This document shows positions 1,355-56,295 of a stretch of 64,000 nucleotides of DNA, in pieces. The DNA lies in assembly GCA_964574035.1 (NCBI GenBank), contig CAZNLD010000001.1, positions 16,220 through 80,219 on the forward strand. The letters are read 5' to 3'. The notes below the pieces were generated by a model that worked only from the letters and a program-made list of their open reading frames with translations, was not told where the DNA came from and searched no databases. Source of the DNA: Candidatus Undinarchaeota archaeon (GTDB taxonomy: Archaea > Undinarchaeota > Undinarchaeia > Undinarchaeales > JALTGF01). The translations under genes and the position numbers were made by a program. Each line of letters starts with the position of its first letter. Position 1 is the first letter of the stretch.

Positions 1355-1447
1355 GCACCGGTAGCCTAGTCTGGATAAGGCATCGGCCTCCTAACGATGT
1401 TAAAGGGAGAGAGCCGGGAATCGCGCGTTCGAATCGCGCCCGGTGCA
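1355..1447 (+). tRNA. tRNA-Arg (anticodon CCU) with an intron of about 18 nt at the canonical 37/38 position. No encoded CCA.
   Basis: Hand-folded cloverleaf. Acceptor GCACCGG/CCGGTGC, D-stem GCCT/AGGC, anticodon stem TCGGC/GCCGG, loop CTCCTAA interrupted by about 18 nt, T-arm GCGCG-TTCGAAT-CGCGC, discriminator A. Starts 1 nt after the argS stop codon. Confidence 0.6.
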
Positions 1448-7326: not shown

Positions 7327-8277
7327 CTAAAACTTTCCCATTAAAAATAACATAATTGACTTCTGCGCATGCAGTCTGTTTTCTGCCTGGTCAAATATTA
7401 TTGAATCCGGATGGTCAATTGCATCTCTTGTTATTTCATAACCAATATGACAGGGCATACAGTGCATTATTTTTGCACTGCTGTTGTTTTTGTCAAGTAA
7501 ATCCTTACTTAATTGATAAGGCATGAATTTTTTCTTTCTCTGTTCAAACTCTGTTTTAAATTTAGTTATTACGTGTCCTTCCTCGTTAAAATACTCCATA
7601 TTCATCCAGGTATCAGTATAAACAAAATCTGCAGTCTCAACACAACTTGTGTCATTAGTTTCTGTATATAAACCTGTATTTTTAACCTGTTCAATTAATT
7701 CATCGTCAACAGACGTCGGGTCTTTTTCAGGAACGCAAAGAGTAAACTTTGCACCCAGTTTGGTGCAGATTTGAGATAATGAATTACTGACATTGTTCCC
7801 AATACCGAGGTAAACAACGCGTTTACCTCTTAAATCCTCTACTTTTCCTCCGCTCTTTTCAATCATAGTTAAAGCATCTCCAAATGCCTGGCATGGATGA
7901 TATTTTTCACAAAGAGCATTAATCACAGGGATTTTTGCAACCTTTTTTGCTTCTTCTAAACTTTCATGTTTTAAGGGCCGGTACATTAAAATGTCGCCGA
8001 ATTGCATGGTTGCCCTAATTTCATCAACAAAATCAGACATTTTAAACTGCGTGGTTCTCCAGTCAAGAAAAATTCCGTGCCCTCCGAGCTGAGTCATACC
8101 TGCCTCGAAAGAAAGTCTTGTCCTTGTAGAAGTTTTCTGGAAAAGCATTACAAGTGTCTTGTCCTTTAAAGCAGAAGTGTATTCTTTTTTGTTGTTCTTA
8201 ATTTCAATTGCCTTGTCTAGGGTTTTCTTTATTTCTTCCGTTGTGAAATCTGATATTTTTAATAAATGCCTTGTCAT
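7327..8277 (-). CDS. argF: Ornithine carbamoyltransferase. A catabolic role is possible given the adjacent carbamate kinase.
   Basis: 316 aa. STRTRLSFE carbamoyl-phosphate binding motif. HCMP motif near the C-terminus. Confidence 0.8.
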   Translation of the reverse strand: MTRHLLKISDFTTEEIKKTLDKAIEIKNNKKEYTSALKDKTLVMLFQKTSTRTRLSFEAGMTQLGGHGIFLDWRTTQFKMSDFVDEIRATMQFGDILMYRPLKHESLEEAKKVAKIPVINALCEKYHPCQAFGDALTMIEKSGGKVEDLRGKRVVYLGIGNNVSNSLSQICTKLGAKFTLCVPEKDPTSVDDELIEQVKNTGLYTETNDTSCVETADFVYTDTWMNMEYFNEEGHVITKFKTEFEQRKKKFMPYQLSKDLLDKNNSSAKIMHCMPCHIGYEITRDAIDHPDSIIFDQAENRLHAQKSIMLFLMGKF

Positions 8278-8433
8278 TTTTTCCTCTATTTACATCTGAT
8301 AATCCACAAGGGTATAAAAAGTTTTTTGGACCTAAGAGAACAGATGTTGGGGTTCTTTGTTCTATCTCATACAAACTGCATTAATTCTGAATTCTATAAC
8401 TATAAAAATAATCTCGTTCATAATAGGAGTAAG

Positions 8434-8946
8434 ATGAAGCAAATTGATGAAGATAAATGGGAAATAAGCAAGTCAGGAGAGTCAGAAGAGTTTCTGGCTG
8501 AAGGGATTTATCAATGCTTGGTTGTAATTTTATTCGATGTTAAGGGAGAAATTGGTGCAATTTACCACGCACCTGAAAGTGGTCTTTTCAGGGCAAAGAA
8601 AGTTAATAACCACAGGGTTGAAAATGCAATTTTTAAATTAAATACAATTCTTAATGGATTTAAGGAGATGGGGGCTGATTACAAAAATTTGAAAGCAGTT
8701 ATTAGCGGAGGGTTGGAAAAAGGAATAGATGTAACGGTCAGCAAAACCCTTGAAGACATAAAGAAGTTGTTCATGGAAAATGGAATAGAAATAGTATATG
8801 AAGATACCGGGGGTTCAGCTATTAGGAGAGATATTACCTTTAAACTTCCGGAAGGAAAAATAAAAATTTTAAAAAGAGCTGAAAAAAGGAGATTGAAAAG
8901 AGAAATTCTGATTTCAATTCCACAGGAGAAAGTACAAACCAGATAA
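8434..8946 (+). CDS. Hypothetical protein. The likely true start is the internal ATG at 8434; the longer ORF overlaps the OTC start.
   Basis: 170 aa from MKQIDEDKW. The Cys/His segment GIYQCLVVILFDVKGEIGAIYHAPESG is reminiscent of CheD-like deamidase folds. Very tentative. Confidence 0.3.
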   Translation: MKQIDEDKWEISKSGESEEFLAEGIYQCLVVILFDVKGEIGAIYHAPESGLFRAKKVNNHRVENAIFKLNTILNGFKEMGADYKNLKAVISGGLEKGIDVTVSKTLEDIKKLFMENGIEIVYEDTGGSAIRRDITFKLPEGKIKILKRAEKRRLKREILISIPQEKVQTR

Positions 8947-8962
8947 CTATTAAGGCATTCTT

Positions 8963-10306
8963 ATGACTAAAAAGAAAATTGTAATAATCGGCGCATTGGG
9001 CATGGATTTCCATACATTCAATACTGTTTTTAAGAATAATTCTGAATATGAAGTTCTGGCATTTACAATTGCAGGGGAGCAGAATGTAGGAACTACAGAA
9101 GAAGCAAAAAGAGTTTATCCAGCCGAGCTTGCCGGAGATTTATATCCGGAAGGGATACCAATGATTCCGGAGACTGAACTTGAAAATTTCGTAGCTGATA
9201 ATGAAGTTGATGAAGTTGTTTTCGCATATTCAGATGTTTCTCATTTGGAAGTAATGCACAAAGCATCAAGAGCTTTGGCTTCCGGAGCAGATTACAGACT
9301 GATAAGCGGAAAAAATACAATGGTTAAAGCAAACAAACCGGTAATTTCAGTCTGCGCAGTCAGAACCGGATGCGGAAAAAGTCAGGTTTCAAGGGCTGTT
9401 TATAGGTATTTAAAAGAGAAAGGCTACAAGGCTGTTGCAATAAGAGAACCGATGCCTTACGGCAACTTGGTGGAGCAGGAAGTTATGAGGTTTGAAACAT
9501 ATGAAGACCTTGACAAGTACAACTGCACTGTTGAAGAAAGAGAAGAATATGAACCCTATATTGAACAAGGACTTGTTGTTTATTCAGGAGTTGACTATGA
9601 AAAAATTGTTAGGCAGGCAGAAAAGGAAGCAGATGTTATAATTTTTGACGGAGGGAATAATGAAATTTCTTTCTACAAACCGGATCTTCTTTTTGTAGTT
9701 GCAGACCCCCTAAGACCGGGGCATGAACTGAAATATCATCCTGGAGAAGTTAATGCAAGAACTGCAGACGCCGTAATTATAAACAAGATTAACAGTGCAA
9801 GACCGGAAGATATTGAAAAGGTAAAAAGAAATATAGAAAAAATTAATCCGGAGGCAGAGATAATTAAAACCAAATCTGTGGTTTCAGTTGAAACCCCTGA
9901 AAAAATAGAGGGTAAAAAAGTTATTGTTGTTGAAGATGGACCTACCTTAACTCACGGAGGAATGTCATACGGAGCAGGATATGTGGCAGCTAAAAAACAC
10001 AGGGCAGAAATTGTCGACCCCAAACCCTACTTGAAAGGAAGTATGAAGGAAACTTTTGAAGAATTTCCTCATATTGATAAAATAGTTCCTGCAATGGGAT
10101 ATAATGAAGAGCAGGTAAAAGACCTTGAAGGAACCATTAACTCGGCAGAAGCAGATATAGTCATTGACGGAAGTACTATCGACCTTGAAAAAGTAATAGA
10201 CAGCAATAAGGAAATTGTCAGAGTAAACTATGATATTGAGCCGGGAAAGGGAACACTTTCAATTGATGAAATGCTTGACAAATTTGAAGAAAAGTATTTG
10301 AAATAA
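8963..10306 (+). CDS. P-loop NTPase of the COG2403 / cyclic 2,3-diphosphoglycerate synthetase-like family (tentative).
   Basis: 447 aa. N-terminal Rossmann-like KKIVIIGALG. Walker A-like VRTGCGKSQVS. Walker B-like VIIFDGGNNE. Confidence 0.4.
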   Translation: MTKKKIVIIGALGMDFHTFNTVFKNNSEYEVLAFTIAGEQNVGTTEEAKRVYPAELAGDLYPEGIPMIPETELENFVADNEVDEVVFAYSDVSHLEVMHKASRALASGADYRLISGKNTMVKANKPVISVCAVRTGCGKSQVSRAVYRYLKEKGYKAVAIREPMPYGNLVEQEVMRFETYEDLDKYNCTVEEREEYEPYIEQGLVVYSGVDYEKIVRQAEKEADVIIFDGGNNEISFYKPDLLFVVADPLRPGHELKYHPGEVNARTADAVIINKINSARPEDIEKVKRNIEKINPEAEIIKTKSVVSVETPEKIEGKKVIVVEDGPTLTHGGMSYGAGYVAAKKHRAEIVDPKPYLKGSMKETFEEFPHIDKIVPAMGYNEEQVKDLEGTINSAEADIVIDGSTIDLEKVIDSNKEIVRVNYDIEPGKGTLSIDEMLDKFEEKYLK

Positions 10307-13347: not shown

Positions 13348-13469
13348 CGCCCCCAGCAGGAGTTGAACCTGCGACCTTCCGGTCTCTGTCACTCCGCTTC
13401 GCTTCGTGAATAGCCACAAAGCAAGCTTTGTGATAACAGCCGGATGCTCTTCCACTAAGCTACAGGGGC
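13348..13469 (-). tRNA. tRNA-Asn (anticodon GUU) with an intron of about 50 nt after position 37.
   Basis: Folded from the reverse complement. Acceptor GCCCCTG/TGGGGGC. D-stem GCTT/GAGC. Anticodon stem TCCGG/CCGGA separated by CTGTTA plus about 50 nt. T-arm GCAGG-TTCAACT-CCTGC. Discriminator G. Confidence 0.55.
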
Positions 13470-23689: not shown

Positions 23690-23842
23690 GTTTATAAAGG
23701 GAAAAGGGTGTTCGATGTTAAGATGTTCGATAAGTGATAGTAGATTATGCATAGTCGGCAGCTGCTGGTAGGTATTTATCAATTCTTACAGTTTGTCTAA
23801 CTGTCGATTGTCTATTGTCTAATATCAATTGTCCATTATCGA
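23690..23842. repeat. Copy A of the dispersed intergenic repeat. It has an imperfect palindromic core CGGCAGCTGCTGGTAG (23756-23771) flanked by degenerate heptamer arrays (GATNNNN on the left; ATTGTCT-type on the right).
   Basis: Direct sequence comparison with the copies at 30466-30565 and 56296-56400. Confidence 0.6.
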
Positions 23843-25093
23843 TTACGTTCCTTCTTCCCAGCTTGACAGATATTTCTTCTGCTCTTTAGAAAGTTCGTCA
23901 ATTTCCATTCCCATCGTTTTCAGCTTCATTTCCGCTATTCTTTCGTCAATTTTTCTTGGTACTGAATAAACTCTGGGCTCCATATCAGAATGGTTGTTTA
24001 AAATATATTCAGCCATTAAAGATTGATTCGCAAAACTCATATCCATTACTTCGCACGGATGCCCTTCCGCAGCCGCCAAATTTACAAGTCTTCCTTCAGC
24101 CAGCAGATAAATTTTCCTGCCGTCCTTTAAAGTATATTCCTTCGTATTATTTCTGATTTCTCTTGAATTTTTGCTTAATTTTTCAAGCTCAGGGATATTA
24201 ATTTCATTATTGAAATGACCTGAATTTGCCAGAACTGCACCATCCTTCATCTTTTTAAAATGCTCTTTTGTAATTATGTTCTTATCTCCAGTTGCTGTAA
24301 CAAATATATCTCCGATTTTGGATGCTTCAGACATTTTCATTACTGTGAAGCCGTCCATTGCCGCTTCAAGTGCTTTTACAGGGTCAACCTCAGTCACAAA
24401 TACTCTGGCACCCATTCCTTTTGCTCTCATGGCAATTCCCCTGGAACACCAGCCATAGCCTGCAACAACAAAATTACTTCCTGCAATCATTACAGAAGTT
24501 GCCCTTAGAATTCCATCAATTGTGGACTGCCCAGTTCCGTATCTGTTGTCAAACAAATGCTTTGTCATTGCATCATTTACTGCAACAACCGGGAACTTCA
24601 GAACATTGTCCTTTTCCATTGCTCTAAACCGAATTACTCCGGTTGTGGTTTCTTCAGTTCCTCCCAAAACATTTGGAATTAAATCTTCCCTTTTTGAGTG
24701 TAAGGTGGCAATTAAATCTCCACCGTCGTCCATTGTTATTTTTGGTTTGCCGTCTAAAACCTTATTTACACACCAATAATATTCTTCTTCAGAAACGCCT
24801 CTCCAGGCAAAAACATTTATTCCATCTTTGGCGAGCTGCGCAGCTACATCATCCTGCGTACTTAATGGATTTGAACCGCATAAATAGACATCCGCTCCTC
24901 CTGCTTTTAGAGTTCTCATTAAAATTCCGGTTTCTTTTGTTACATGCAGGCAGGCGCCAAGTGAACTTCCTTCAAGCGGCTTCTCTTTCTTAAATCTCTT
25001 TCTTATTTCCTGAAGAACCGGCATGTGATCTTCAGCCCAGTCAAGTTTTAATTTTCCTTTTTCAGCTAAATTTTTGTCTTTTACTTTACTCAT
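23843..25093 (-). CDS. ahcY: Adenosylhomocysteinase (SAH hydrolase).
   Basis: 416 aa. NAD-binding [15 protein letters not shown]-type fold throughout. Confidence 0.85.
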
Positions 25094-27746: not shown

Positions 27747-29342
27747 CTACTTCTTTTTTACTTTCTTAACCAGCTTCTTAACTTCTTTTTTCCTGATCTT
27801 TTCAAGCTCTTTCTTTTCTTTCTTGGTAAGCTTGCCTTCTTCCTCAAGCTTTTCAAGCTTTTCAAATGCCGATTCTGCTTCCTGTTTAGGTTTCTCTTTC
27901 TTTTTCCATTCAGATTTTGTAAGCTCCGGATGAGGATAACTTGGGACAGGATATCTCTTCAGATAGTCTTGAAGAACGTACAAGAGAGCATACCCGGGGC
28001 CCATGAATATCAAAACCAGGAGACTTCCTAAAATTATTGAAAGACCCCATGTTGCTGTTATAAAGGAGTAGATAGTTCCTCCTGTAATTAGCAGAAGCAG
28101 AGCCCAGATGTATGAAGGCCTTAAAACTAAATGATAATTCCACCAGAGTGAAGCAATTCCATATGTTAACTTTCTCATTGTTTTTACATATTTGTCTCTT
28201 CCAAGAAGTCTGATAAGAGATTTTTCCATATAGAAATAAATTATGTCTCTCTTGAAGCGGTATAAATCGTAAGCATTGAAAATATCTCCGTAAACGGCGC
28301 TCATTTTGAATCCGCTCCATTCAGTATCCTCCCACGCATTCTTTACAATGGGTCTATAGAAGTAATGGAACTTCCACCAAGGATAATAAATTAATTCTCT
28401 TCCAGTAATTACAATATCTTCCGGTTTGCATTTTTCAACGTAGGATATCCACTGGATTGCTGCAAGTTTTGCTTCATGTTTTTCCATGGCAGGCCTGTAA
28501 ACAACAAAATTTACTCCTGCAGGCAATTTTGGTTTCTTTATTTTTACTCTTGGAACCATGTGTGTTGATTCCACTGTGTGAATTGCTTCAACTCCAAAAT
28601 AAGCTTCTTTTAATGGTTTAGTGGTGTCCATTTCAGGTTTTATGTCTGTCCAGGAGTCAACCTGACCTGTCAAGGCATTTAAACCGAAATAGCCCTGCTT
28701 CATTTCTGTTTCTCCTTTTTTGGGAGTTACATAATATGAAATTTTCCAGTAAGGTTCATATGCAAGCTCTTTGTTTAAAAACCAAACAGCATCATAATTT
28801 ATGAAAAGCATCTTCTCGAACCACCACTTCAGCTTCCACCTTACTTTTTCGTAATCCCAGTAAACAGGATAAGCAGGAGAGTTGAACCACCATTTGTCCT
28901 TTGTCATGGCTTTTCCGAGGAGTTCCTGTACTTTGCCGGGAGTCATGATATTTACATTTGCAGGAACACCTGCTTCATGAGCCTCCGGTGTGGCTCCGGT
29001 AACTGTAAGTAAAAGTGCAGAGTGGGCGTTAGACTGCTCCCTGATTTGTCCCAAATGTTCAACATCAGAAGGCGTTACTGGTTCGTTGCCTCTTTTATAT
29101 CTTACAATAATTCTTCCGAAAGGTCTTTCAATATCCTTCTTTTCGGCTAAAACATCAACTTTATAAACAATTCCTTCCTCTTCCTTCTTGGGCATTTTTG
29201 CAAGCTCATCAAGTTTGCCAGTTTCCCTTTCAAGAGGAGCAGTGGTTATCTTTCCCCCGACAATCCCTACATTCCTCCTGGTTTCGTACCCGTACATGTT
29301 CAGGAGCTCTTCGGTGAAGTCGAGAAGTGTATTGATATCCAT
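27747..29342 (-). CDS. Membrane protein with an N-terminal Mrr-like restriction-endonuclease-fold domain, a W/Y-rich central region, C-terminal TM helices and a Lys-rich coiled tail.
   Basis: N-terminus FTEELLNMYGYE...GIVYKVDVLA...RIIVRYKRGNEPVTPSDVEHL...LLLTVTGATPEA matches the Mrr_cat pattern. Two to three TM segments near residues 410-470. KK/EE-rich tail. Confidence 0.5.
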   Translation of the reverse strand: MDINTLLDFTEELLNMYGYETRRNVGIVGGKITTAPLERETGKLDELAKMPKKEEEGIVYKVDVLAEKKDIERPFGRIIVRYKRGNEPVTPSDVEHLGQIREQSNAHSALLLTVTGATPEAHEAGVPANVNIMTPGKVQELLGKAMTKDKWWFNSPAYPVYWDYEKVRWKLKWWFEKMLFINYDAVWFLNKELAYEPYWKISYYVTPKKGETEMKQGYFGLNALTGQVDSWTDIKPEMDTTKPLKEAYFGVEAIHTVESTHMVPRVKIKKPKLPAGVNFVVYRPAMEKHEAKLAAIQWISYVEKCKPEDIVITGRELIYYPWWKFHYFYRPIVKNAWEDTEWSGFKMSAVYGDIFNAYDLYRFKRDIIYFYMEKSLIRLLGRDKYVKTMRKLTYGIASLWWNYHLVLRPSYIWALLLLITGGTIYSFITATWGLSIILGSLLVLIFMGPGYALLYVLQDYLKRYPVPSYPHPELTKSEWKKKEKPKQEAESAFEKLEKLEEEGKLTKKEKKELEKIRKKEVKKLVKKVKKK

Positions 29343-29388
29343 TTACAGTATCTTTAAGTATGTTCTTGATATTTATATTTTAGTAAAG

Positions 29389-30465
29389 ATGAAAAAGGTA
29401 GAGGAAAAAGAAATAAAACTGAAAATTCCGGAAAACCACAGGAAGCCGGAAAAATCAGAAGTTTTTTATAATCCAGAGATGGAAATGAATCGGTCTCTTT
29501 CTGTCGCTTCTGCTAAAGTTTATTTTGAGAATAAGAAAATTAAAATTCTGGATCCTTTTTCTGCAACCGGAATCAGGGCCATTAGGTATGCAAAAGAGCT
29601 GGAAGGAACAGTTCTTGCTTCTGATATAAGTCAAAAGGCAGTAGATTTGACTGAAAAAAATGCATATCTGAATGGTGTTGAAATTGAAACAGAAAGAGAA
29701 AAAGCAAATGTAATTCTTAACAGAGCTTATTTCGATTTGATCGATATTGATCCTTTTGGAAGTCCGGCTCCTTTTTTGCAGGCGGCTTCCAAAGCGCTTA
29801 AAAATAATGGGATGCTTGGAATTACTGCAACAGATGCAACTGCTTTATGCGGAGTTTATCCAAAAGTTTGTCTTAGGAACTATGGGGCTGTTCCTTTAAG
29901 AACTGAATACTGCCACGAAATCGCAATGAGAATTTTAATTGGATATACTGTGAAAGAAGCGGCTGTTTATGAAAAAGCAGTTGAACCACTGCTGGTTTTT
30001 AATGACAAACATTATTTCAGACTTCAGCTGAAAATAAGAAAAGGAGCAAAAAGAGCAAATAACTGTCTTGATAAAATTGGTAATATCTACCACTGTTTTA
30101 ACTGCGGAGCAAGGAAAATGGAAAAAGGCAGATTTGTAAAAAAAGAAAAATGTAAATGCGGGGAGAAATTTGAAATTGGCGGACCGGTCTGGACCGGAAA
30201 ATTATTCGATCCTAAGTTTTGTAAGAAGATTTTATTTGAAGTTGAAGGAAATAAAGAACTTGAAAAGCAGACTAGATTGATGATTGAAGAAGCAGGGCAT
30301 GAGCCTCTTTTTTATGATGTTCATGAAGTTTTTAGAGGAAGTTCAATTCCAAAACTTGAAAAAATTATTGAAAAACTGAAAGAAAAAGGATTTAAAGCAA
30401 GCAGAACTCACTTTTCGCCGGTCGGAATTAGAACGGATGCAGAAATATCAGATATTAGATGCTAG
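29389..30465 (+). CDS. trm1: tRNA (guanine26-N2)-dimethyltransferase Trm1.
   Basis: TRM1 family. DPFGSPAPFL motif and a Cys-cluster insertion. The start is the internal ATG (MKKVEEK); the upstream part of the ORF overlaps the divergent gene. Confidence 0.8.
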   Translation: MKKVEEKEIKLKIPENHRKPEKSEVFYNPEMEMNRSLSVASAKVYFENKKIKILDPFSATGIRAIRYAKELEGTVLASDISQKAVDLTEKNAYLNGVEIETEREKANVILNRAYFDLIDIDPFGSPAPFLQAASKALKNNGMLGITATDATALCGVYPKVCLRNYGAVPLRTEYCHEIAMRILIGYTVKEAAVYEKAVEPLLVFNDKHYFRLQLKIRKGAKRANNCLDKIGNIYHCFNCGARKMEKGRFVKKEKCKCGEKFEIGGPVWTGKLFDPKFCKKILFEVEGNKELEKQTRLMIEEAGHEPLFYDVHEVFRGSSIPKLEKIIEKLKEKGFKASRTHFSPVGIRTDAEISDIRC

Positions 30466-30565
30466 ATAATCGATATAAATGGACAATCGATAATAGATGA
30501 TAGAACATCGATAATCGACAGTTAGACAAGTTGTAGTGTTAATAAACATCTACCAGCAGCTGCCA
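30466..30565. repeat. Copy B of the dispersed repeat, in inverted orientation relative to copy A. About 90 bp are alignable, including the core CTACCAGCAGCTGCC (30550-30564), with AATCGAT-type heptamers on the left.
   Basis: The reverse complement of 23760-23850 aligns with 30470-30565 (…atcgacagttagacaaRYtgtaR…ataaaYaYctaccagcagctgcc). Confidence 0.6.
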
Positions 30566-31975: not shown

Positions 31976-34900
31976 TTATCTGTTTCTAACCCTGACAACA
32001 TACCAGCCGCCTATGAGCGAAATAAAACCTAAGATTGCTACTAGATAGCCGTAAATTTTACCTGCTCCAAAAGCAGTTAAAAACCCGGTTGGACCTTCTT
32101 CAGTTTGGTTTTCTCCCTGATTTTCCTCTTCTGCTGGAGTGGTCTCCGACTCTTCTGAGGACGGTTCCTCTGGCTCGGTTCCAGCAGACTGGGTAGAGTT
32201 TGTCTCTTCCTCTTCTACTGGTTCTTCTTCACTAAAACTTCCTGAATAGCCTCCTCCTCCTCCGCCACCGGAGCTTCCGCTTCCACTTGAACCGCCATTG
32301 TTTGAAGAATCGCCGTCCTCGGCGTTATTTTCTTCTTCAGACGTGTTGATAAGTAAAGAATAGTTACTGCTTTTAACAAAATTCTTCCCGTCGACTGCCT
32401 CAATCCAGTAGGAGTAAATGCCATCAGTTAAATTCAAACTTTCTGGAATAATAAGCTTTGAAAGAGTGCTGTTTTTAATGCTATTATTCAAAGAAACATT
32501 GGTTCCATTCAGGAAAAGAACAGCTGAAAGAGTTCCCTGTTCTTCATCAATTAATTTGAATTTTATTTCAGCTGATGTCTTGTTAGTAGTTATGTTAGTT
32601 GTATTCATTTCAATTACAGGCGGGTTGTTTTTAACTCGGAATAAATGCCTTGGATAAGTATGAACCATTTTTCCGTCGTCTATTTCAAACCAATAGGAAT
32701 GATTTCCGGCTGAAAGATTTATAAGATTGAATTCGGCCGGAGTTCCATTTTCTGCAGTTAAATTTAAGCTTGAATTTTCTCCATCTAAAAATAAAGTGAC
32801 ATTGAACTCTCCATCATCCTTATCAGTAATTTTGAAACCCAGAGTTATATTTTCATAAGTTATAGTAGAGTTATTAACCATACTTATATTCAGTTCAGGA
32901 ACTGAACAAATCGTAATTAGACGTATTGGTGAAACTGAATTGTTAATTCTGTCGCCTGCTTTTATCCAAAAAGAATATCTGCCCGGTTCCAATCCCTCTC
33001 TTGGAATTAATGAAACGGAAGTATTGTTTGGAATTGTTTCATCTGAATCAACAGAAGAATTATTGAACAAAAGCTCAGCAGAAAGAGTTTCATTTTCTAT
33101 GTCCGAAAGCTTGAAAAATATTTCAGGAGTTGAATTTGAGGTAATAGTATTATTTTCTGTTTCAATTTGTATTTCTGGCGGGTCATTTATTACTTCAAAA
33201 GAATATCTCTCTGAAACGCCAGTTAAATCGGAATCATCTGCTTCAATCCAGTAAAAGTGTTTTCCTAATGAAGCAGATGCGGATATGTTTGCTTCAGTGT
33301 TGTTTTTAATTGAAGCCCTGCTCCCTTTTTCTTTGCCGTCTATGAAAAGAACAGCATCAGTAATATTTTGCTCTAGGTCAACTACTTTAAAATCAAATGA
33401 ATTTTCTTTTGAATGAGTTTTAGTTTCGTTTTCCTCTAAAATTTCGATTTCCGGTGCAGTATTAATTAATCTGTACTTTCCTGAAATTTCATAAAGGATT
33501 GGAGTTGAATTTCCATTTCCCTTGAAATTAATTTTAATTTTAAAAGGGCCGGTTACATTGTCAAAACTTCCAGAAGTCAAATCCGGATTTTTTATAGATA
33601 GATTATTTCCATTAACCAAATCATAGGAATACTCTGCAAGAAGCTCTTCTGAGGTCGAATTTACAAATTTAACTGATGAAATAAAATTCTCATAATCCCC
33701 TGAATATTTAAAAGTAGATTCAAGGAGTTTCATTTCATCCGGAACATTAAGTTCAGAGGAAGTCCATTCCCCGCTTTCCATATAAATAAGAGGAGGGTCT
33801 GAAATTTGAGCGTTCTTTATCAGATAATTTGAAAACCTAGCACCAGGGCCGTCTGCTCTTTTGGGAGACCTATATGAAAATTCAATTTTTCCTTCGCCAT
33901 TTGAACCCGTATCTGAAATATTTCCAATTATTTTCCAAGAATTGTTGTTTATCTTGTAATAACCGAAAAAATCATCTTCCTTTCTTTCTATTTTCAAAAA
34001 GAGTTTATCCCCATTGAATATTTTATTTGGATAAATCAATTTACTCTTTTTCTCAGTATTAAAACCGTCCCTTACAGTCATTTGAACATGTGTTCTATTA
34101 TATGAAACAGCTGAAAAACTCATTCTGCCTTCAGTAAATATCAATCCAGCTTGATAATCTGAAAGTTCATTTGGGTCAGGAGGAGGGAATATCGGTACAG
34201 GAGCCAGCGAGATGAAGCCTGAAATTTTTGCCATTGACAATAAATTATTTGGAGCTGAAAATACTCCTTTAAGAATTGAACTGGCCCTGCTAATATTTGA
34301 TTCTGCAAACGGTTCATTGCCTGTGCACATCTGAGCTGGGCTTGATGATGCAGTTGCAGTGGATGTTTTTCCATTTGGGCTTTTTAAAATCCAAACTACT
34401 GCTCCTCTTTCAAAGTAAACTGAAAAATTTCCCCTCACTCTTCCAGGAGCAAAATATTCCGGCTGGCCCGCATTTTGTCCGTTTGTCTGCCCTGCAAATC
34501 GGTTGTCTATGCCAATTGGAATATAGGCAGTGCAGTTATCATTTCTGTTATAATAACCAAAATGAGCGGTATATGTTCCGTTTTCATTATGTTCAACACA
34601 CTCAAGGACAGGACTTATTTTTTTAGGAGGATCTATACAATTAGATTCATTCTCATGAGATTCGTTTTCTTCCCCATAAGGATTGTAAAATGTCCATTCA
34701 GGAATCTCGGTCTGAATGGAAAAATTACCTGAAAATTTAGATTTTAATTCTACGGAAACTGTTTTTCTATTTCGAGTAGTGTTTAAAATCAGTAAATTAT
34801 TTTCAATTCGTGTCTCTGAAAACCGCTCTTCACCACCATCATTTAGTTTCCATGTAGACATATTGTCTGTTTTAAAAGTAAAACTACTTCCCATCCTACC

Positions 34901-35104
34901 GGCGAGCTGAAGCTGATTTTTAGCTATTGAAGGGTTGTCGGTAAAAGTTTCAACTTCAAAAATGTTTGAAGAATTTGATTTAAAACCGGAATCAAAATCA
35001 GCAGTCCTGGAAATATTGAATTCTTCTTCTCCTGTTTCAGCAAGGACCGGAACTGCTAAAAATAAAAAAATAAACAACAGCACCGATATTACTTTTGACC
35101 TCAT
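31976..35104 (-). CDS. Large (1042 aa) secreted surface protein. It has a signal peptide, many NxS/T sequons and repeated beta-rich domains, then a Gly/Ser-rich linker, an acidic region and a C-terminal TM anchor.
   Basis: Signal peptide MRSKVISVLLFIFLFLAVPVLA. C-terminal ...GGSSGSGSSGGGGGGGYSGSF...LVAILGFISLIGGWYVVRVRNR. Confidence 0.6.
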   Translation of the reverse strand: MRSKVISVLLFIFLFLAVPVLAETGEEEFNISRTADFDSGFKSNSSNIFEVETFTDNPSIAKNQLQLAGRMGSSFTFKTDNMSTWKLNDGGEERFSETRIENNLLILNTTRNRKTVSVELKSKFSGNFSIQTEIPEWTFYNPYGEENESHENESNCIDPPKKISPVLECVEHNENGTYTAHFGYYNRNDNCTAYIPIGIDNRFAGQTNGQNAGQPEYFAPGRVRGNFSVYFERGAVVWILKSPNGKTSTATASSSPAQMCTGNEPFAESNISRASSILKGVFSAPNNLLSMAKISGFISLAPVPIFPPPDPNELSDYQAGLIFTEGRMSFSAVSYNRTHVQMTVRDGFNTEKKSKLIYPNKIFNGDKLFLKIERKEDDFFGYYKINNNSWKIIGNISDTGSNGEGKIEFSYRSPKRADGPGARFSNYLIKNAQISDPPLIYMESGEWTSSELNVPDEMKLLESTFKYSGDYENFISSVKFVNSTSEELLAEYSYDLVNGNNLSIKNPDLTSGSFDNVTGPFKIKINFKGNGNSTPILYEISGKYRLINTAPEIEILEENETKTHSKENSFDFKVVDLEQNITDAVLFIDGKEKGSRASIKNNTEANISASASLGKHFYWIEADDSDLTGVSERYSFEVINDPPEIQIETENNTITSNSTPEIFFKLSDIENETLSAELLFNNSSVDSDETIPNNTSVSLIPREGLEPGRYSFWIKAGDRINNSVSPIRLITICSVPELNISMVNNSTITYENITLGFKITDKDDGEFNVTLFLDGENSSLNLTAENGTPAEFNLINLSAGNHSYWFEIDDGKMVHTYPRHLFRVKNNPPVIEMNTTNITTNKTSAEIKFKLIDEEQGTLSAVLFLNGTNVSLNNSIKNSTLSKLIIPESLNLTDGIYSYWIEAVDGKNFVKSSNYSLLINTSEEENNAEDGDSSNNGGSSGSGSSGGGGGGGYSGSFSEEEPVEEEETNSTQSAGTEPEEPSSEESETTPAEEENQGENQTEEGPTGFLTAFGAGKIYGYLVAILGFISLIGGWYVVRVRNR

Positions 35105-37419: not shown

Positions 37420-37570
37420 TTAAAGTTTGCTTAAAGGATGGACGTTAGATATTAGACAATAGACAATGGAGATGTGGCTAGTAGCAGTTAATGAGCACTA
37501 CTGACTTTGATGTCTATCATCCATTATCGATTGCCTATTGTCGATGCTCTATCGTCGATTGTCTATACAA
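37420..37570. repeat. Variant copy C of the dispersed repeat. AGACAAT heptamers lie on the left and an eight-unit TGTCNAT array on the right (37511-37568). The centre has a hairpin-like AGTAGcagttaatgagcaCTACT in place of the CAGCTG core.
   Basis: The heptamers share the consensus of copies A and B (TGTCTAT CATCCAT TATCGAT TGCCTAT TGTCGAT GCTCTAT CGTCGAT TGTCTAT). Confidence 0.55.
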
Positions 37571-39238
37571 TCACATCATGCCAGGCATTCCGGCAGGCAT
37601 TCCGCCTCCGCCTGGTCCTGGTGGAGCGCCGCCTCCGCCGCCGTCGCCTTTGCCAAGTTCTTTGGCTGAAATGATATCATCGATTCTCAAAATCATTTCT
37701 GCAGCTTCAGATGCGCTTTTGATAGCCTGAGTTTTAATTTTCAAGGGTTCAACTACACCGTCCTTGAACATGTCTCTTATTTCTCCCTTGAGAACATCCA
37801 GACCATACCACTTATTGCTTTTCTTCTCATGTGCATTTCTCATTTCAACAAGTTTGTCAATTGGGTCAAGACCTGCGTTTTCAGCTAGACTTCTTGGAAT
37901 TATTTCAAGTGCGTCTGCGAATGCTGACAGTGCAAGCTGTTCCCTGCCTTCGACTTTTTCAGCTTCGGCTCTCACTCTTTTTACAAGTTCTACTTCAACT
38001 GCGCCTCCGCCTCCGACAACCTTGCCGGTCGTGATAGCTACTGAAACGCCTCCTATTGCGTCTTCAAGTGCTCTTTCAACTTCATCAACAACATGGTCTG
38101 TTCCTCCTCGGATAAGGACTGAGACTGCTTTTGGACTCTTACAGTCGGTTACGAAAACCATTTCGTCTCCAGCAACCTTCTTTTCTTCAACTATTCCTGC
38201 CTTTCCAAGGTCAGCTTCTGAAAGGTCGTCCAGGCTCGAAATAACCTTTCCGCCTGTAGCTCTTGCAAGCTTCTGCATGTCGCTTTTCTTTACCCTTCTG
38301 ACTGCAAAAATTCCCTGCTTGGCAAAATAGTGCTGAGCTAAATCACCTATTCCTTTCTGGCAGAAAAGTACATTTGCTCCGGTTTTCTTAACCAAGTCAA
38401 CCATTTCTTTCAGCATTCCCTCTTCCTGACTTAAGAAATCCTTGAGTTTTGCAGGATCGGTTATCTGAATTTCTGCTTCAGTTTCAGTCTCCTTGATTTC
38501 AATTGCGGAGTCAACAAGAGCGATTTTTGCGTTCTTCATATGTTTAGGCATAGAAGAGTGGACTCTTTCTTTGTCTATGATAAGTCCTTTTATTAGTTTA
38601 GAATCGTCTATGCTTCCTCCGTCTCTTTTTTCAAGTTTTATGTTATCTGTATCGACTTCGAATTTACCTCCATCTTTTTCAGCTACAAGTGAAACTGCTT
38701 CTACCGCGAGATTTGCAAGCATGTCTCTTGCTCTCTCCGCTGATTTTCCAGTCATTGCAGTCATTGCAACTTTTTCAAGTAGTTCTTTGTCTTCTGGAGA
38801 AATCGTTTCGGAAAGCTCTTCCAGAATTTCCTGAGCTTTTTCATTCGCCATTCTGTAACCGTGAACGATTACCGTTGGGTGAATGTTCTGCTCAAGAAGT
38901 TCTTCTGCTTTCTTAAGAAGTTCTCCTGCAATTACTACTGCAGAAGTTGTTCCGTCTCCAACTTCTTCTTCCTGCGCCTGGGAAACTTCAACCAGCATCT
39001 TAGCTGAAGGATGCTGAATATCCATTTCTCGTAAAATAGTGGCGCCGTCATTAGTGATTACGATATCACCAAGATTATCAACAAGCATCTTGTCCATTCC
39101 TTTTGGACCAAGAGTTGTTCTTACTGACTCGGCTACTATTCTTCCGGCCAGTATGTTCATTCTCTGCGCGTCACGGCCCATAGTCCGCTGCGCCTGATCT
39201 GACATAACTACAACAGGTTTTCCTGTTAATTGTGCCAT
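37571..39238 (-). CDS. ths: Thermosome (group II chaperonin) subunit.
   Basis: [14 protein letters not shown]-binding GDGTTS. C-terminal GGM-type tail ([22 protein letters not shown]). The start is reassigned to [11 protein letters not shown], which is preceded by GGAGGTG. Confidence 0.9.
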
Positions 39239-39400
39239 AAGATACACCTCCAAATTTAATAATTTTAAGTGTGAATAATCTATTAGAGGTAATATATAAG
39301 TGTTTCTATTTTGTGCATTATTTAAGGTCATAGAATAGATGAGTACTGTTCTTTGTGAAGTTATCTAAAAACCTTTATATAAAGTGATAGCGGTTAATAA

Positions 39401-56222: not shown

Positions 56223-56295
56223 AGCCCCGTAGTGTAGCGGTCAAGCATAGCAGGCCCTGGACCTGCTGACAGCAGTTCGAATCTGCTCGGGGCTA
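56223..56295 (+). tRNA. tRNA, most likely tRNA-Gln (anticodon CUG). It has an A1-U72 pair and discriminator A. The anticodon loop CCCTGGA has C at position 33.
   Basis: Acceptor AGCCCCG/CGGGGCT. Anticodon stem GCAGG/CCTGC. T-arm AGCAG-TTCGAAT-CTGCT. The numbering fits the canonical 73 nt. Confidence 0.5.

Follow-up and report, generated by a model that had tools for sequence, protein, structure and literature searches.

Mrr_cat domains are common in defence systems, and PepSY domains are typically extracytoplasmic, residing in secreted or periplasmic proteins. The known components of FtsZ-based division in archaea are few, comprising FtsZ1/2, SepF, the PRC-barrel CdpB proteins and, recently, CdpC, and to our knowledge almost nothing is known about division in DPANN archaea, which are not open to genetics. 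The Undinarchaeota, hosts of the gene described here, are tiny symbiotic archaea. SepF constitutes the membrane anchor of archaeal FtsZ (PMC8178401), and CdpC has been described as an FtsZ membrane anchor in haloarchaea (bioRxiv 10.64898/2026.07.16.738847). Undinarchaeota genomes encode two FtsZ paralogues and MinD (PMC7414124, supplement), and the import of DNA through pili, followed by its degradation by encoded nucleases, has been proposed for these organisms (PMC7414124). Finally, Makarova, Wolf & Koonin (2019) defined a DPANN-specific double PepSY-like cluster and regarded it as a likely protease inhibitor (PMC6393860).

The window, that is, the whole stretch of 64,000 nucleotides analysed, encodes on its minus strand a 531-aa protein, tentatively regarded as a scaffold, in which an Mrr_cat-type domain with an incomplete catalytic motif precedes a membrane-anchored body. 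The gene, its upstream region and the elements of its N-terminal domain are as follows:

27747..29342, minus strand: complete gene of 531 codons, ATG start, with its stop codon at 27747-27749 (ORF list)
29343..29388, no strand assigned: divergent intergenic region shared with Trm1, 46 bp, AT-rich, with TATA-like stretches (sequence reading)
28902..29342, minus strand: Mrr_cat / PD-(D/E)xK-fold domain with incomplete catalytic motif, residues 1-147 (Pfam and Foldseek)
29169..29255, minus strand: family-specific insertion of ~25 aa between beta1 and beta2, residues 30-58 (alignment; pLDDT 49-60)
29154..29156, minus strand: codon of D63, the first catalytic Asp, on beta2 (invariant column)
29094..29102, minus strand: codons of R81-Y82-K83 at the (E/Q)xK position of beta3 (alignment)

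The start of Trm1 was reassigned to the ATG at 29389, and the 46-bp region separating the two genes may serve as a promoter. An earlier, sequence-only reading of this DNA had treated the stretch as a single ORF, and no sign of two genes emerged: the 37 homologues recovered are full-length (521-559 aa) and all align end to end, and codon differences to the 97%-identical relative L012 comprise 162 synonymous and 18 non-synonymous changes. The codon pattern is that expected of a gene under strong purifying selection. The same reading had described a single protein joining an Mrr-type fold, in which (E/Q)xK is degenerate, to C-terminal membrane helices and a Lys/Glu-rich tail, a combination borne out by Pfam, Foldseek, the family alignment and an AF2 model of the 531-aa protein (mean pLDDT 83.6). 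The family occurs only in Undinarchaeota-labelled MAGs, and the full architecture is restricted to this phylum. Identity between genomes tracks that of the neighbouring genes, and the 531-aa protein is better conserved (67-70% identity) than Trm1 (39-44%) when the same genomes are paired; inheritance of the gene is vertical, and its surroundings are housekeeping genes.

The Mrr_cat pattern that the sequence-only reading had noticed at the N-terminus is recognized by Pfam above the curated cutoff (PF04471, 26.3 bits against 21, E 8.6e-6, residues 61-140). A restriction-endonuclease-like fold is likewise found by Foldseek, in which the AF2 model retrieves PD-(D/E)xK folds, with 1y88/AF1548 as the best match (E 5e-5), followed by MspJI, VC1899, Can2, Cdn1 and the N-domain of Rpb5. 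A sequence-profile search of the family against the PDB returned nothing significant, and the profile of the inactive NA-iREase1 module (PF22722) scores 16.6 bits, below its cutoff of 27. The winged-helix DNA-recognition domain Mrr_N has no Pfam match, and the nuclease fold is itself N-terminal. D63 is invariant in 27 aligned sequences and corresponds to the Asp of 'IDILAE' and 'GVDII' in canonical Mrr_cat proteins. When aligned with the VECK or VQCK of canonical relatives, R81 takes the place of the E/Q and K83 that of the Lys, as the earlier description of R-Y-K replacing (E/Q)xK had proposed. Within the family, column 81 is occupied by R/I/H/M/L/N/G/S and column 83 by K/N/T, the Lys being replaced by N or T in at least six members, while the intervening Y82 is invariant. 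A (D/E/Q)xK motif is thus missing from beta3 both in the window protein, which carries R81, and among the family variants, none of which has D, E or Q at this position. Scored against canonical relatives, the active site retains its Asp, has lost a now variable E/Q and keeps the Lys in part; a canonical nuclease site is therefore unlikely on this alignment. An insertion of ~25 aa between beta1 and beta2, modelled with low confidence, is absent from the canonical Mrr_cat relatives in the alignment. The nuclease-like domain is nevertheless the best-conserved part of the protein between deep clades (49% identity), and its conservation despite a degenerate motif suggests that the domain still has a function, though not the canonical one. 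The database label 'restriction endonuclease' is probably misleading.

The remainder of the protein is organized into the following elements:

28638..28901, minus strand: module 1, residues 148-235, with a helix, a long beta-hairpin 'LAYEPYWK' and a strand 'NALTG' (AF2 sub-model, hhalign)
28500..28637, minus strand: inter-module linker, residues 236-281, with two short helices and invariant K270-P271...P274 (alignment, AF2 sub-model)
28245..28499, minus strand: module 2, residues 282-366, with a helix 'EKHEAKLAA', a beta-hairpin 'LIYYPWWK' and a strand 'SAVYG' (alignment, AF2 sub-model, hhalign)
28119..28244, minus strand: two juxtamembrane helices, residues 367-408, with invariant E373, G381, M389 and T393 (AF2, alignment)
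27954..28118, minus strand: TM helical hairpin, residues 409-463, with TM1 at 409-429, a short uncharged loop and TM2 at 433-463 (hydropathy, AF2)
27750..27953, minus strand: proline-rich exit segment and Lys/Glu-rich helical hairpin tail, residues 464-531, with invariant L505 in 'GKL' (composition, AF2)

Residues 146-395 (250 aa) contain 14 W, 23 Y and 30 K, in agreement with the W/Y/K-rich middle region described previously. This region is, however, not a low-complexity spacer but is predicted to consist of folded, duplicated modules: the AF2 sub-model of the pair reaches a pLDDT of 89 and a pTM of 0.85, and modules 1 and 2 match each other in hhalign with 91% probability. Invariant surfaces are formed by the 'EKKDIERPFGR' loop of the head and by the PYWK and NAxTG faces of the modules. 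The modules are followed by AF2 helices at 367-380 and 382-403, an amphipathic stretch (367-403) that precedes TM1. Of the 'two to three' TM helices suggested initially, two are recovered by hydropathy (peaks at 412-430 and 436-454, with hydrophobic peaks present in all family members) and by AF2, neither of which gives a third. In 27/27 aligned members, 3-5 K/R residues precede TM1, 0-1 lie in the loop and 6-9 follow TM2, and no N-terminal hydrophobic segment or signal peptide is present in the 531-aa protein. The hairpin is accordingly predicted to run in-out-in, with all soluble parts in the cytoplasm. The KK/EE tail is as described before, with 38% K and 23% E over residues 471-531 and two predicted helices (476-501 and 507-530). 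An assignment of this tail to SHOCT (PF09851) is not supported, one of five tails matching at 14.4 bits against a cutoff of 27 and the window tail not matching at all.

A profile comparison relates the central region to a family of ~250-aa DPANN proteins, here termed A3. Residues ~154-400 align with A3 over 209 columns (hhalign probability 99.7%, E 9e-26), and the juxtamembrane helices align with its post-module helix. In HMMER profile searches the ~250-aa proteins match the target family in two stretches; conversely, the A3 HMM matches every member of the target family, and in some the match runs through TM1. By these profiles, residues ~150-430 are homologous over the full length to a tail-anchored DPANN protein of ~250 aa, with two duplicated modules of weak PepSY similarity, a juxtamembrane helix and a TM segment. 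A3 itself is probably cluster cls.004634 of PMC6393860, to which it was matched by its published description.

The genomic context of A3 provides the link to division. In each of five members looked up individually, the ~250-aa gene lies directly downstream of sepF (5/5), and this gene order recurs in a sixth locus, which was located through a Micrarchaeota-labelled SepF (6/6 in total). The A3 and A4 alignments were too divergent for pattern-based scans; in a SepF-anchored scan of metagenome loci, the ~250-aa gene occurs downstream on the same strand in 55 of 58 loci, with a gap of at most 200 nt in 51; because these SepF loci were seeded from loci already carrying the ~250-aa gene, the resulting 95% describes one DPANN clade. 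The sepF-linked proteins come from Diapherotrites- and Micrarchaeota-labelled lineages, and no report of this linkage was found in the searchable literature. SepF is found neither in the window nor in 19 related Undinarchaeota-family loci (L001-L019), and no Undinarchaeota SepF occurs among the best 120 matches of a SepF profile search. The target gene is not adjacent to sepF, being fixed beside Trm1 and TFIIB instead. Its connection with division is one of guilt by association, carried over a homology of ~20% identity.

Taken together, we tentatively favour a reading of the 531-aa protein as a non-catalytic scaffold on the inner membrane face that would anchor DNA or a partner at the membrane or the divisome. 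The degenerate nuclease fold would act as a binding module, most plausibly for DNA, an activity assumed from the fold alone. The double module would provide a protein-protein interface inherited from a division-associated ancestor, and the basic tail would add affinity for nucleic acid or acidic lipid. Together, head, double module and tail would hold the chromosome, or a complex of partners, at the membrane or the division apparatus. Among the roles raised by the sequence-only reading, DNA tethering and a membrane-anchored sensor or scaffold are viable candidates, and uptake of external DNA does not fit because all soluble domains are predicted to be cytoplasmic. A bolder version, which we consider rather unlikely as it stands, takes the protein as an unrecognised archaeal divisome or nucleoid-segregation component. 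It would couple the chromosome, via the dead nuclease fold and the basic tail, to the FtsZ machinery, via the double module of the sepF lineage. In Undinarchaeota it would complement or stand in for either the ~250-aa protein associated with SepF or SepF proper. On this view, the ~250-aa family would act with SepF throughout DPANN and fill a gap in the minimal archaeal divisome.

The neighbourhood of the gene bears on a somewhat unlikely alternative, namely a housekeeping membrane scaffold apart from DNA and division, involved for example in the biogenesis of the envelope or of membrane proteins or in host-contact structures, with a purely protein-binding head. The window contains MCM, TBP, TFIIB and similar genes; both the divergent Trm1 neighbour and the Gar1-TFIIB-Trm1 synteny are present in 16/16 related loci having upstream sequence, and the conserved neighbours are transcription and tRNA genes, not division genes. 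That the target gene is not near sepF in Undinarchaeota fits this alternative, as does the protein-interaction role that inactive restriction-endonuclease folds serve elsewhere, given the Rpb5 N-domain among the Foldseek matches and the weak NA-iREase1 match. In addition, the gene for a related fusion protein, P0083, adjoins a Sec61-beta-like gene. These points are opposed by the tight sepF linkage of the homologous ~250-aa family, whose loci often lie near Cdc6, PolD and ScpB, and no finding indicates any specific alternative pathway. A gene for a coiled-coil protein of ~205 aa directly follows the target homologue in 14 loci, but neither the window nor the two loci most closely related to it, L012 and L004, has it. 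In sequence searches of Pfam and the PDB, this putative partner matches neither ESCRT-III or PspA nor any other described family.

An active membrane-bound nuclease with a rearranged site is improbable. Such an enzyme might, for instance, break down DNA taken in by an auxotrophic symbiont to salvage nucleotides, or cut or resolve DNA during segregation. Loss of the E/Q is no proof of inactivity: E67, K68, E72 and R73 are invariant in the beta2-beta3 loop beside the invariant D63, and E67, K68 and E72 could form a relocated catalytic site. Soluble relatives with the same module pair (P0045, P0059, P0062, P0079) retain a canonical ExK, and the uptake and breakdown of DNA proposed for Undinarchaeota (PMC7414124) likewise speak for this reading. 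In contrast, the variable E/Q position and the N or T found in place of the Lys form the pattern of a relaxed site, 'AEK' also occurs in canonical relatives and so offers no compensating novelty, and no second nuclease motif was found.

Lower still we rate a role in regulating or inhibiting a protease, either membrane-bound or cytoplasmic, of the kind suggested for DPANN 'double PepSY-like' proteins by analogy with PepSY propeptides. PepSY is the sole recurring Pfam signal among the ~250-aa relatives (7/33 members, best E 5.3e-5), and an inhibitory role has been suggested for the DPANN double PepSY-like cluster (PMC6393860). However, the target protein has no PepSY (PF03413) match in the Pfam search, no PepSY structure was matched by Foldseek, and no protease gene is conserved beside the target or the ~250-aa family. 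Moreover, in contrast to the usual location of PepSY domains, the target modules have no signal peptide; with a cytoplasmic N-terminal domain on one side and a K/R-flanked TM hairpin on the other, they are predicted not to be extracytoplasmic.

Two further ideas about the surroundings were rejected. One is a restriction-modification pairing, but the adjacent methyltransferase is the tRNA (m2,2G) enzyme Trm1 (PF02005, 370 bits) and not a DNA methyltransferase. The inverted repeats said to bracket the gene do exist (23757-23844 against 30478-30564), but they mark no mobile block and are irrelevant to the gene. Both belong to a degenerate intergenic element that recurs at a third site, 37438-37566; every copy closely follows the 3′ end of a gene and shares its orientation, the genes beside the two repeats being oppositely oriented, and an Rfam scan of the window identified four tRNAs only and nothing at the repeats. 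The enclosed 6.6 kb hold housekeeping genes (SAHH, APRT, MTAP, a MiaB-like enzyme and Trm1), and the TFIIB/Gar1 synteny extends past the right-hand repeat in at least ten genomes, which speaks against cargo of a mobile element. A role in defence had been suggested earlier, but an anti-virus or abortive-infection protein, with an Mrr-like sensor or nuclease coupled to a membrane-disrupting effector and possibly carried on an inverted-repeat mobile block, is very improbable and largely refuted by distribution. In its favour are the flanking repeats, the frequency of Mrr_cat domains in defence systems and weak PADLOC-DB matches covering the nuclease portion of PDC-S02 (E 1e-3 to 5e-5; a partial 16.5-bit match, none for the coiled-coil partner and paralogues). 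Against it stand vertical inheritance in an unchanging order of core genes throughout the phylum, strong purifying selection with conservation above Trm1, a neighbourhood free of defence genes, the recurrent 3′-end nature of the repeats and a degenerate catalytic motif.

Two observations are added here: a DPANN-specific 'dark matter' membrane protein family lies in an operon with sepF in ~95% of sampled loci, and one whole phylum has fused that ~250-aa body to a degenerate restriction-endonuclease fold that is kept under very strong selection. If the favoured scaffold reading is true, both proteins would be testable candidates for the connection between chromosome, membrane and Z-ring in minimal archaeal cells. 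Should the division inference be wrong, the fusion would still illustrate cleanly how a nuclease fold can be taken into service as a module without catalysis.

With Mrr_cat (PF04471) proteins, exemplified by AF1548 (1y88) and E. coli Mrr, the target shares a common fold over its N-terminal 147 residues and the beta2 Asp, and with the closer relatives also the strand 'D-[IV]-L-A-E-K'. It differs from them in its lost and variable E/Q, its partly kept Lys and the ~25-aa beta1-beta2 insertion. In contrast to Mrr, it lacks an N-terminal DNA-recognition domain, is fused to a membrane-anchored body and, whereas Mrr is a type IV restriction enzyme, resides in a housekeeping context and not in one of restriction-modification or defence. 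Inactive modules such as NA-iREase1 (PF22722) and the N-terminal domain of eukaryotic Rpb5 likewise combine a PD-(D/E)xK fold with degenerate catalytic residues kept under selection; compared with NA-iREase1, the target scores below the cutoff, has no NACHT/NTPase context and is joined to other partner domains.

The four soluble relatives named above have the same order of domains, an Mrr_cat domain followed by two LxYxP[FY][YW] modules, but no TM helices in addition to their canonical ExK. Their contigs carry bacterial-type neighbours such as EF-P and type IV pilin; the genomic context of these soluble relatives is uninformative. P0083 (339 aa), a shorter membrane version with this order of domains, has a degenerate motif and a C-terminal TM segment and matches the A3 profile. 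Neither P0083 nor any soluble form has the TM hairpin with basic tail or the ~25-aa insertion. Noc, which tethers the nucleoid to the membrane in bacteria, SepF and the haloarchaeal CdpC are analogues in the proposed logic only, in which a membrane-bound protein facing the cytoplasm would connect DNA or the Z-ring with the membrane. There is no relationship in sequence or fold, the analogy being drawn from which domains are present and from the association of the homologous ~250-aa family with sepF. Closest to the body of the protein is A3 itself, with which it shares the LxYxP[YFW]W and NAxTG motifs and two tandem modules followed by a juxtamembrane helix and a membrane anchor. In contrast to A3, whose sepF loci lack the coiled-coil gene, the target family usually has this partner gene of its own and is not found beside sepF. 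The nuclease-like head, the second TM helix and the long, basic helical tail have no counterpart in A3 and are additions that Undinarchaeota made to an A3-type body.

Full-length homologues of 521-559 aa align with the window protein from N-terminus to tail, which bears out the view of the sequence-only reading that the ORF is a single gene. From a word-index search, 37 of these homologues emerged, together with one 342-aa partial match; they are colinear from a common N-terminus, 'MD[IV]', through the basic tail, at 34-86% identity, and when one genome per species was scanned, 17 loci of the family came up. The complete architecture is confined to one phylum, Undinarchaeota, and is rare, since a HMMER profile run exhaustively against 1.84 billion cluster representatives yielded only about six full-length ones. 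Over 532 codons, the window gene and a 97% identical copy in a Candidatus Undinarchaeales MAG (L012, one of the 17 loci) differ at 162 synonymous and 18 non-synonymous positions; the gene is under purifying selection. In five loci of a deep clade, two paralogues with 34-41% identity to the window protein stand in tandem, followed by a gene for a coiled-coil partner; this arrangement suggests a hetero-oligomer in the deep clade and a homo-oligomer in the clade of the window protein. One of these pairs, accompanied by archaeal TFIIB and Trm1, lies on a 5.6-kb contig of a 'Sulfurovum sp.' MAG (L015, JAIVYC010000049.1), a label that is probably wrong. In MAG UBA55 (L018:8001-9594), the sole such case among the loci, the gene is found in two pieces, 8001-8765 and 8818-9594, whether by frameshift, as a pseudogene or through faulty assembly.

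Features in the window and in related loci
27747-29342, minus strand: gene of the window protein, ATG start, 531 aa (ORF list)
29188-30465: mechanical Trm1 ORF with a TTG start, overlapping the above gene at its 5' end
29343-29388: divergent intergenic region, 46 bp
23757-23844: repeat copy, just past the 3' end of SAHH (minus strand)
30478-30564: repeat copy, just past the 3' end of Trm1 (plus strand)
37438-37566: repeat copy, just past the 3' end of gene 37571-39331 (minus strand)
31976-35104, minus strand: 1042-aa protein, just beyond Gar1
13348-13469, minus strand: tRNA gene, 122 nt
1355-1447, plus strand: tRNA gene, 93 nt
1473-1544 and 56223-56295: two further tRNA genes
L001:11434-12057, L002:9674-10291, L009:2705-3370 and 11 other loci: coiled-coil partner gene
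L001:8001-11418, L002:6325-9671, L015:1985-5254, L016:4836-6730, L017:8001-11254: tandem paralogue pairs
L021-L025 and L029-L109 (e.g., L022:4615-5786, L109:4001-5125): sepF followed, in 55 of the 58 loci with enough downstream sequence, by an A3 gene (tail-anchored double-module protein of about 250 aa), on Diapherotrites- or Micrarchaeota-labelled DPANN contigs

The gene sits in the order Gar1, TFIIB, Trm1 (divergent) and target, among neighbours that also include MCM, TBP, SAHH, APRT, MTAP and a MiaB-like radical-SAM enzyme. All 16 related loci with upstream sequence, down to 35% identity, have a divergently transcribed Trm1 on the upstream side, and in 14 of them TFIIB was detected beyond it. 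Between the window and a closer genome group (L003, L005-L009, L018), identity amounts to 67-70% for the target, 84-86% for TFIIB and 39-44% for Trm1, so that the target has diverged less than Trm1 across these genome pairs; its identity tracks that of the neighbour genes, consistent with vertical inheritance. The conserved Trm1 start is the ATG at 29389, giving a 358-aa protein (PF02005 at 370 bits) and leaving the 46-bp intergenic region, which is AT-rich, contains TATA-like stretches on both strands and may serve as a promoter. Directly downstream of the family in 14 Undinarchaeota loci is the partner gene, encoding an all-helical coiled-coil protein of about 205 aa with a conserved N-terminus ('ME[LF]PGIR'), for which Pfam and PDB searches gave no relatives. 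It is missing downstream in the window, L012 and L004, has no homologue within the 64-kb window and was not found in any sepF locus examined; in the window and in L012, a convergent MiaB-like gene abuts the target stop codon.

The sequence-only reading had also placed the gene inside a block bracketed by inverted repeats. The repeats exist, yet they delimit no mobile block: the two arms and a third locus are copies of one degenerate intergenic element, composed of short 'ATTGTC/ATCGAT'-type units and a 26-nt flanking arm (GGCAGCTGCTGGTAGGTATTTATCAA), and two of them look mutually inverted because each copy is oriented with its adjacent gene. Rfam gave no match at the copies, which could act in termination, or in regulation or protein binding at the 3' end. 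Elsewhere in the window, an N-terminal signal-like segment, several repeated units of about 90 aa with abundant N-x-S/T sequons, a stalk rich in Gly, Ser and Glu, and a C-terminal TM make the 1042-aa protein beyond Gar1 a likely surface or S-layer-type glycoprotein; of the four tRNA genes, the 122-nt and 93-nt ones are unusually long, which suggests introns.

The proposed Mrr_cat assignment of the N-terminal domain holds: the Pfam profile matches residues 61-140 with 26.3 bits, above the curated cutoff of 21 (E 8.6e-6), while NA-iREase1 stays under its cutoff. An AlphaFold2 model built from a 27-sequence family alignment (mean pLDDT 83.6) retrieves PD-(D/E)xK folds as top Foldseek matches in the PDB—AF1548/1y88 (E 5e-5), MspJI, VC1899, Can2, Cdn1 and the Rpb5 N-domain. 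When the family was aligned with canonical Mrr_cat proteins from the profile search, D63 fell on the beta2 Asp column, where it is invariant, and 'V-R81-Y82-K83' on the canonical 'V-E/Q-C-K'. The earlier reading of R-Y-K in place of (E/Q)xK was thus right. Family-wide, column 81 (R/I/H/M/L/N/G/S) and column 83 (K, N or T) vary around an invariant Y82, a pattern that points to a lost canonical catalytic site. The domain further carries a family-specific insertion of about 25 aa (residues 30-58, low model confidence) and a nearly invariant family-specific beta2-beta3 loop, 'EKKDIERPFGR'. Since it is the most conserved part between the two deep clades (49% identity) despite its degenerate motif, it is presumably functional, though probably not as a classical nuclease. 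NCBI annotates family members as 'restriction endonuclease', probably a misleading name.

The middle region had been singled out for its composition, which is confirmed by counts of 14 W, 23 Y and 30 K across residues 146-395. Modelled alone, residues 148-366 (pLDDT 89.3, pTM 0.85) form two copies of a unit made up of a helix, a long beta-hairpin and a further strand, so that a folded domain rather than a spacer is predicted. The two modules, with the motifs 'LAYEPYWK...NALTG' and 'LIYYPWWK...SAVYG', are homologous (hhalign 91%, E 1e-6). As for the anchor, two of the claimed 'two to three' C-terminal TM helices stand and the third does not: two adjacent hydrophobic helices occur in every family member (409-429 and 433-463 in the model). 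There are 3-5 K/R in the 24 residues preceding TM1, 0-1 in the inter-helix loop and 6-9 past TM2, and the N-terminus has no signal peptide but an acidic helix that belongs to the nuclease fold; from these features we infer an in-out-in topology with every soluble domain cytoplasmic. The tail is as Lys/Glu-rich as stated (residues 471-531, 38% K and 23% E) and is predicted by AlphaFold2 as a helical hairpin. A resemblance of the tail to SHOCT was not supported by the Pfam SHOCT profile.

The profile search also uncovered distant relatives. Dozens of proteins of about 250 aa, each matching in two stretches, carry a C-terminal TM helix besides two modules and the conserved helix 'ETLxELxxPxxW', have no signal peptide and hence look tail-anchored; the few named members of this A3 family are labelled Candidatus Diapherotrites, and PepSY is their sole recurring Pfam signal (7 of 33 members, best E 5.3e-5). 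Residues ~154-400 of the window protein align with A3 over 209 columns, spanning both modules and the juxtamembrane helices (hhalign 99.7% probability, E 9e-26), and the A3 HMM matches every family member, reaching through TM1 in some. On these matches, the window protein reads as a full A3-type body with additions, namely a degenerate Mrr_cat, a second TM and a basic tail. In a single protein, P0083 (339 aa), two modules stand between a degenerate Mrr_cat and a C-terminal TM; it is named as from a 'bacterium', probably wrongly, as its neighbours on contig L020, NMD3, Alba, RadA and S8e, are archaeal, and a 52-aa Sec61-beta-like gene comes after it. Soluble proteins of 330-410 aa join a canonical Mrr_cat to two modules. 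Two that retain ExK (L026:5001-6026, L028:5001-6206) have bacterial-type neighbours, EF-P and type IV pilin N_methyl, so the two modules are not confined to DPANN and can accompany a nuclease predicted to be active.

The main functional clue is the linkage of A3 to sepF, whose product is the established archaeal FtsZ membrane anchor (PMC8178401). All five A3 members looked up individually directly follow a co-oriented sepF, and such loci are often near Cdc6, PolD, ScpB or Hel308-type helicase genes. Conversely, 80 metagenomic loci were collected with a SepF 49-76% identical to those of the five; an A3-family gene follows on the same strand in 55 of the 58 with at least 800 nt downstream, a figure that describes one DPANN clade, not all archaea, because the SepF seeds came from A3-bearing loci. 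The gap is at most 200 nt in 51 loci, typically 11-30 nt, and one Micrarchaeota-labelled MAG shows the same arrangement. The sepF context has been termed 'variable', with no mention of an A3 neighbour (PMC8178401), and no report of a sepF-A3 linkage or operon was found in the searchable literature. According to the supplement of PMC7414124, Undinarchaeota genomes contain MinD and two paralogues of FtsZ.

On the favoured, though tentative, reading, the window protein may act as a scaffold or tether, in which the nuclease fold would have a non-catalytic binding role with DNA as its ligand, and whose function would be tied to division or nucleoid-membrane coupling. A housekeeping scaffold without relation to DNA or division is rather unlikely. 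That the protein is an active nuclease with a rearranged or relocated catalytic site is improbable, the canonical site appearing degenerate throughout the family. It is a shade more improbable that it regulates a protease. A role in defence is very hard to credit, the PADLOC match being weak and partial and the distribution that of a core gene.

Under the scaffold or tether reading, the protein would offer a concrete and testable way into the archaeal divisome, of which little is known so far. Its domain types are already known; new are its architecture, the recognition that it elaborates on a membrane protein found across DPANN, and how strongly this DPANN protein is linked to sepF. By description only, A3 matches cls.004634, a DPANN-specific cluster in 34 of 67 DPANN genomes, described there as a double PepSY-like protein and possible protease inhibitor (Makarova, Wolf and Koonin, PMC6393860).
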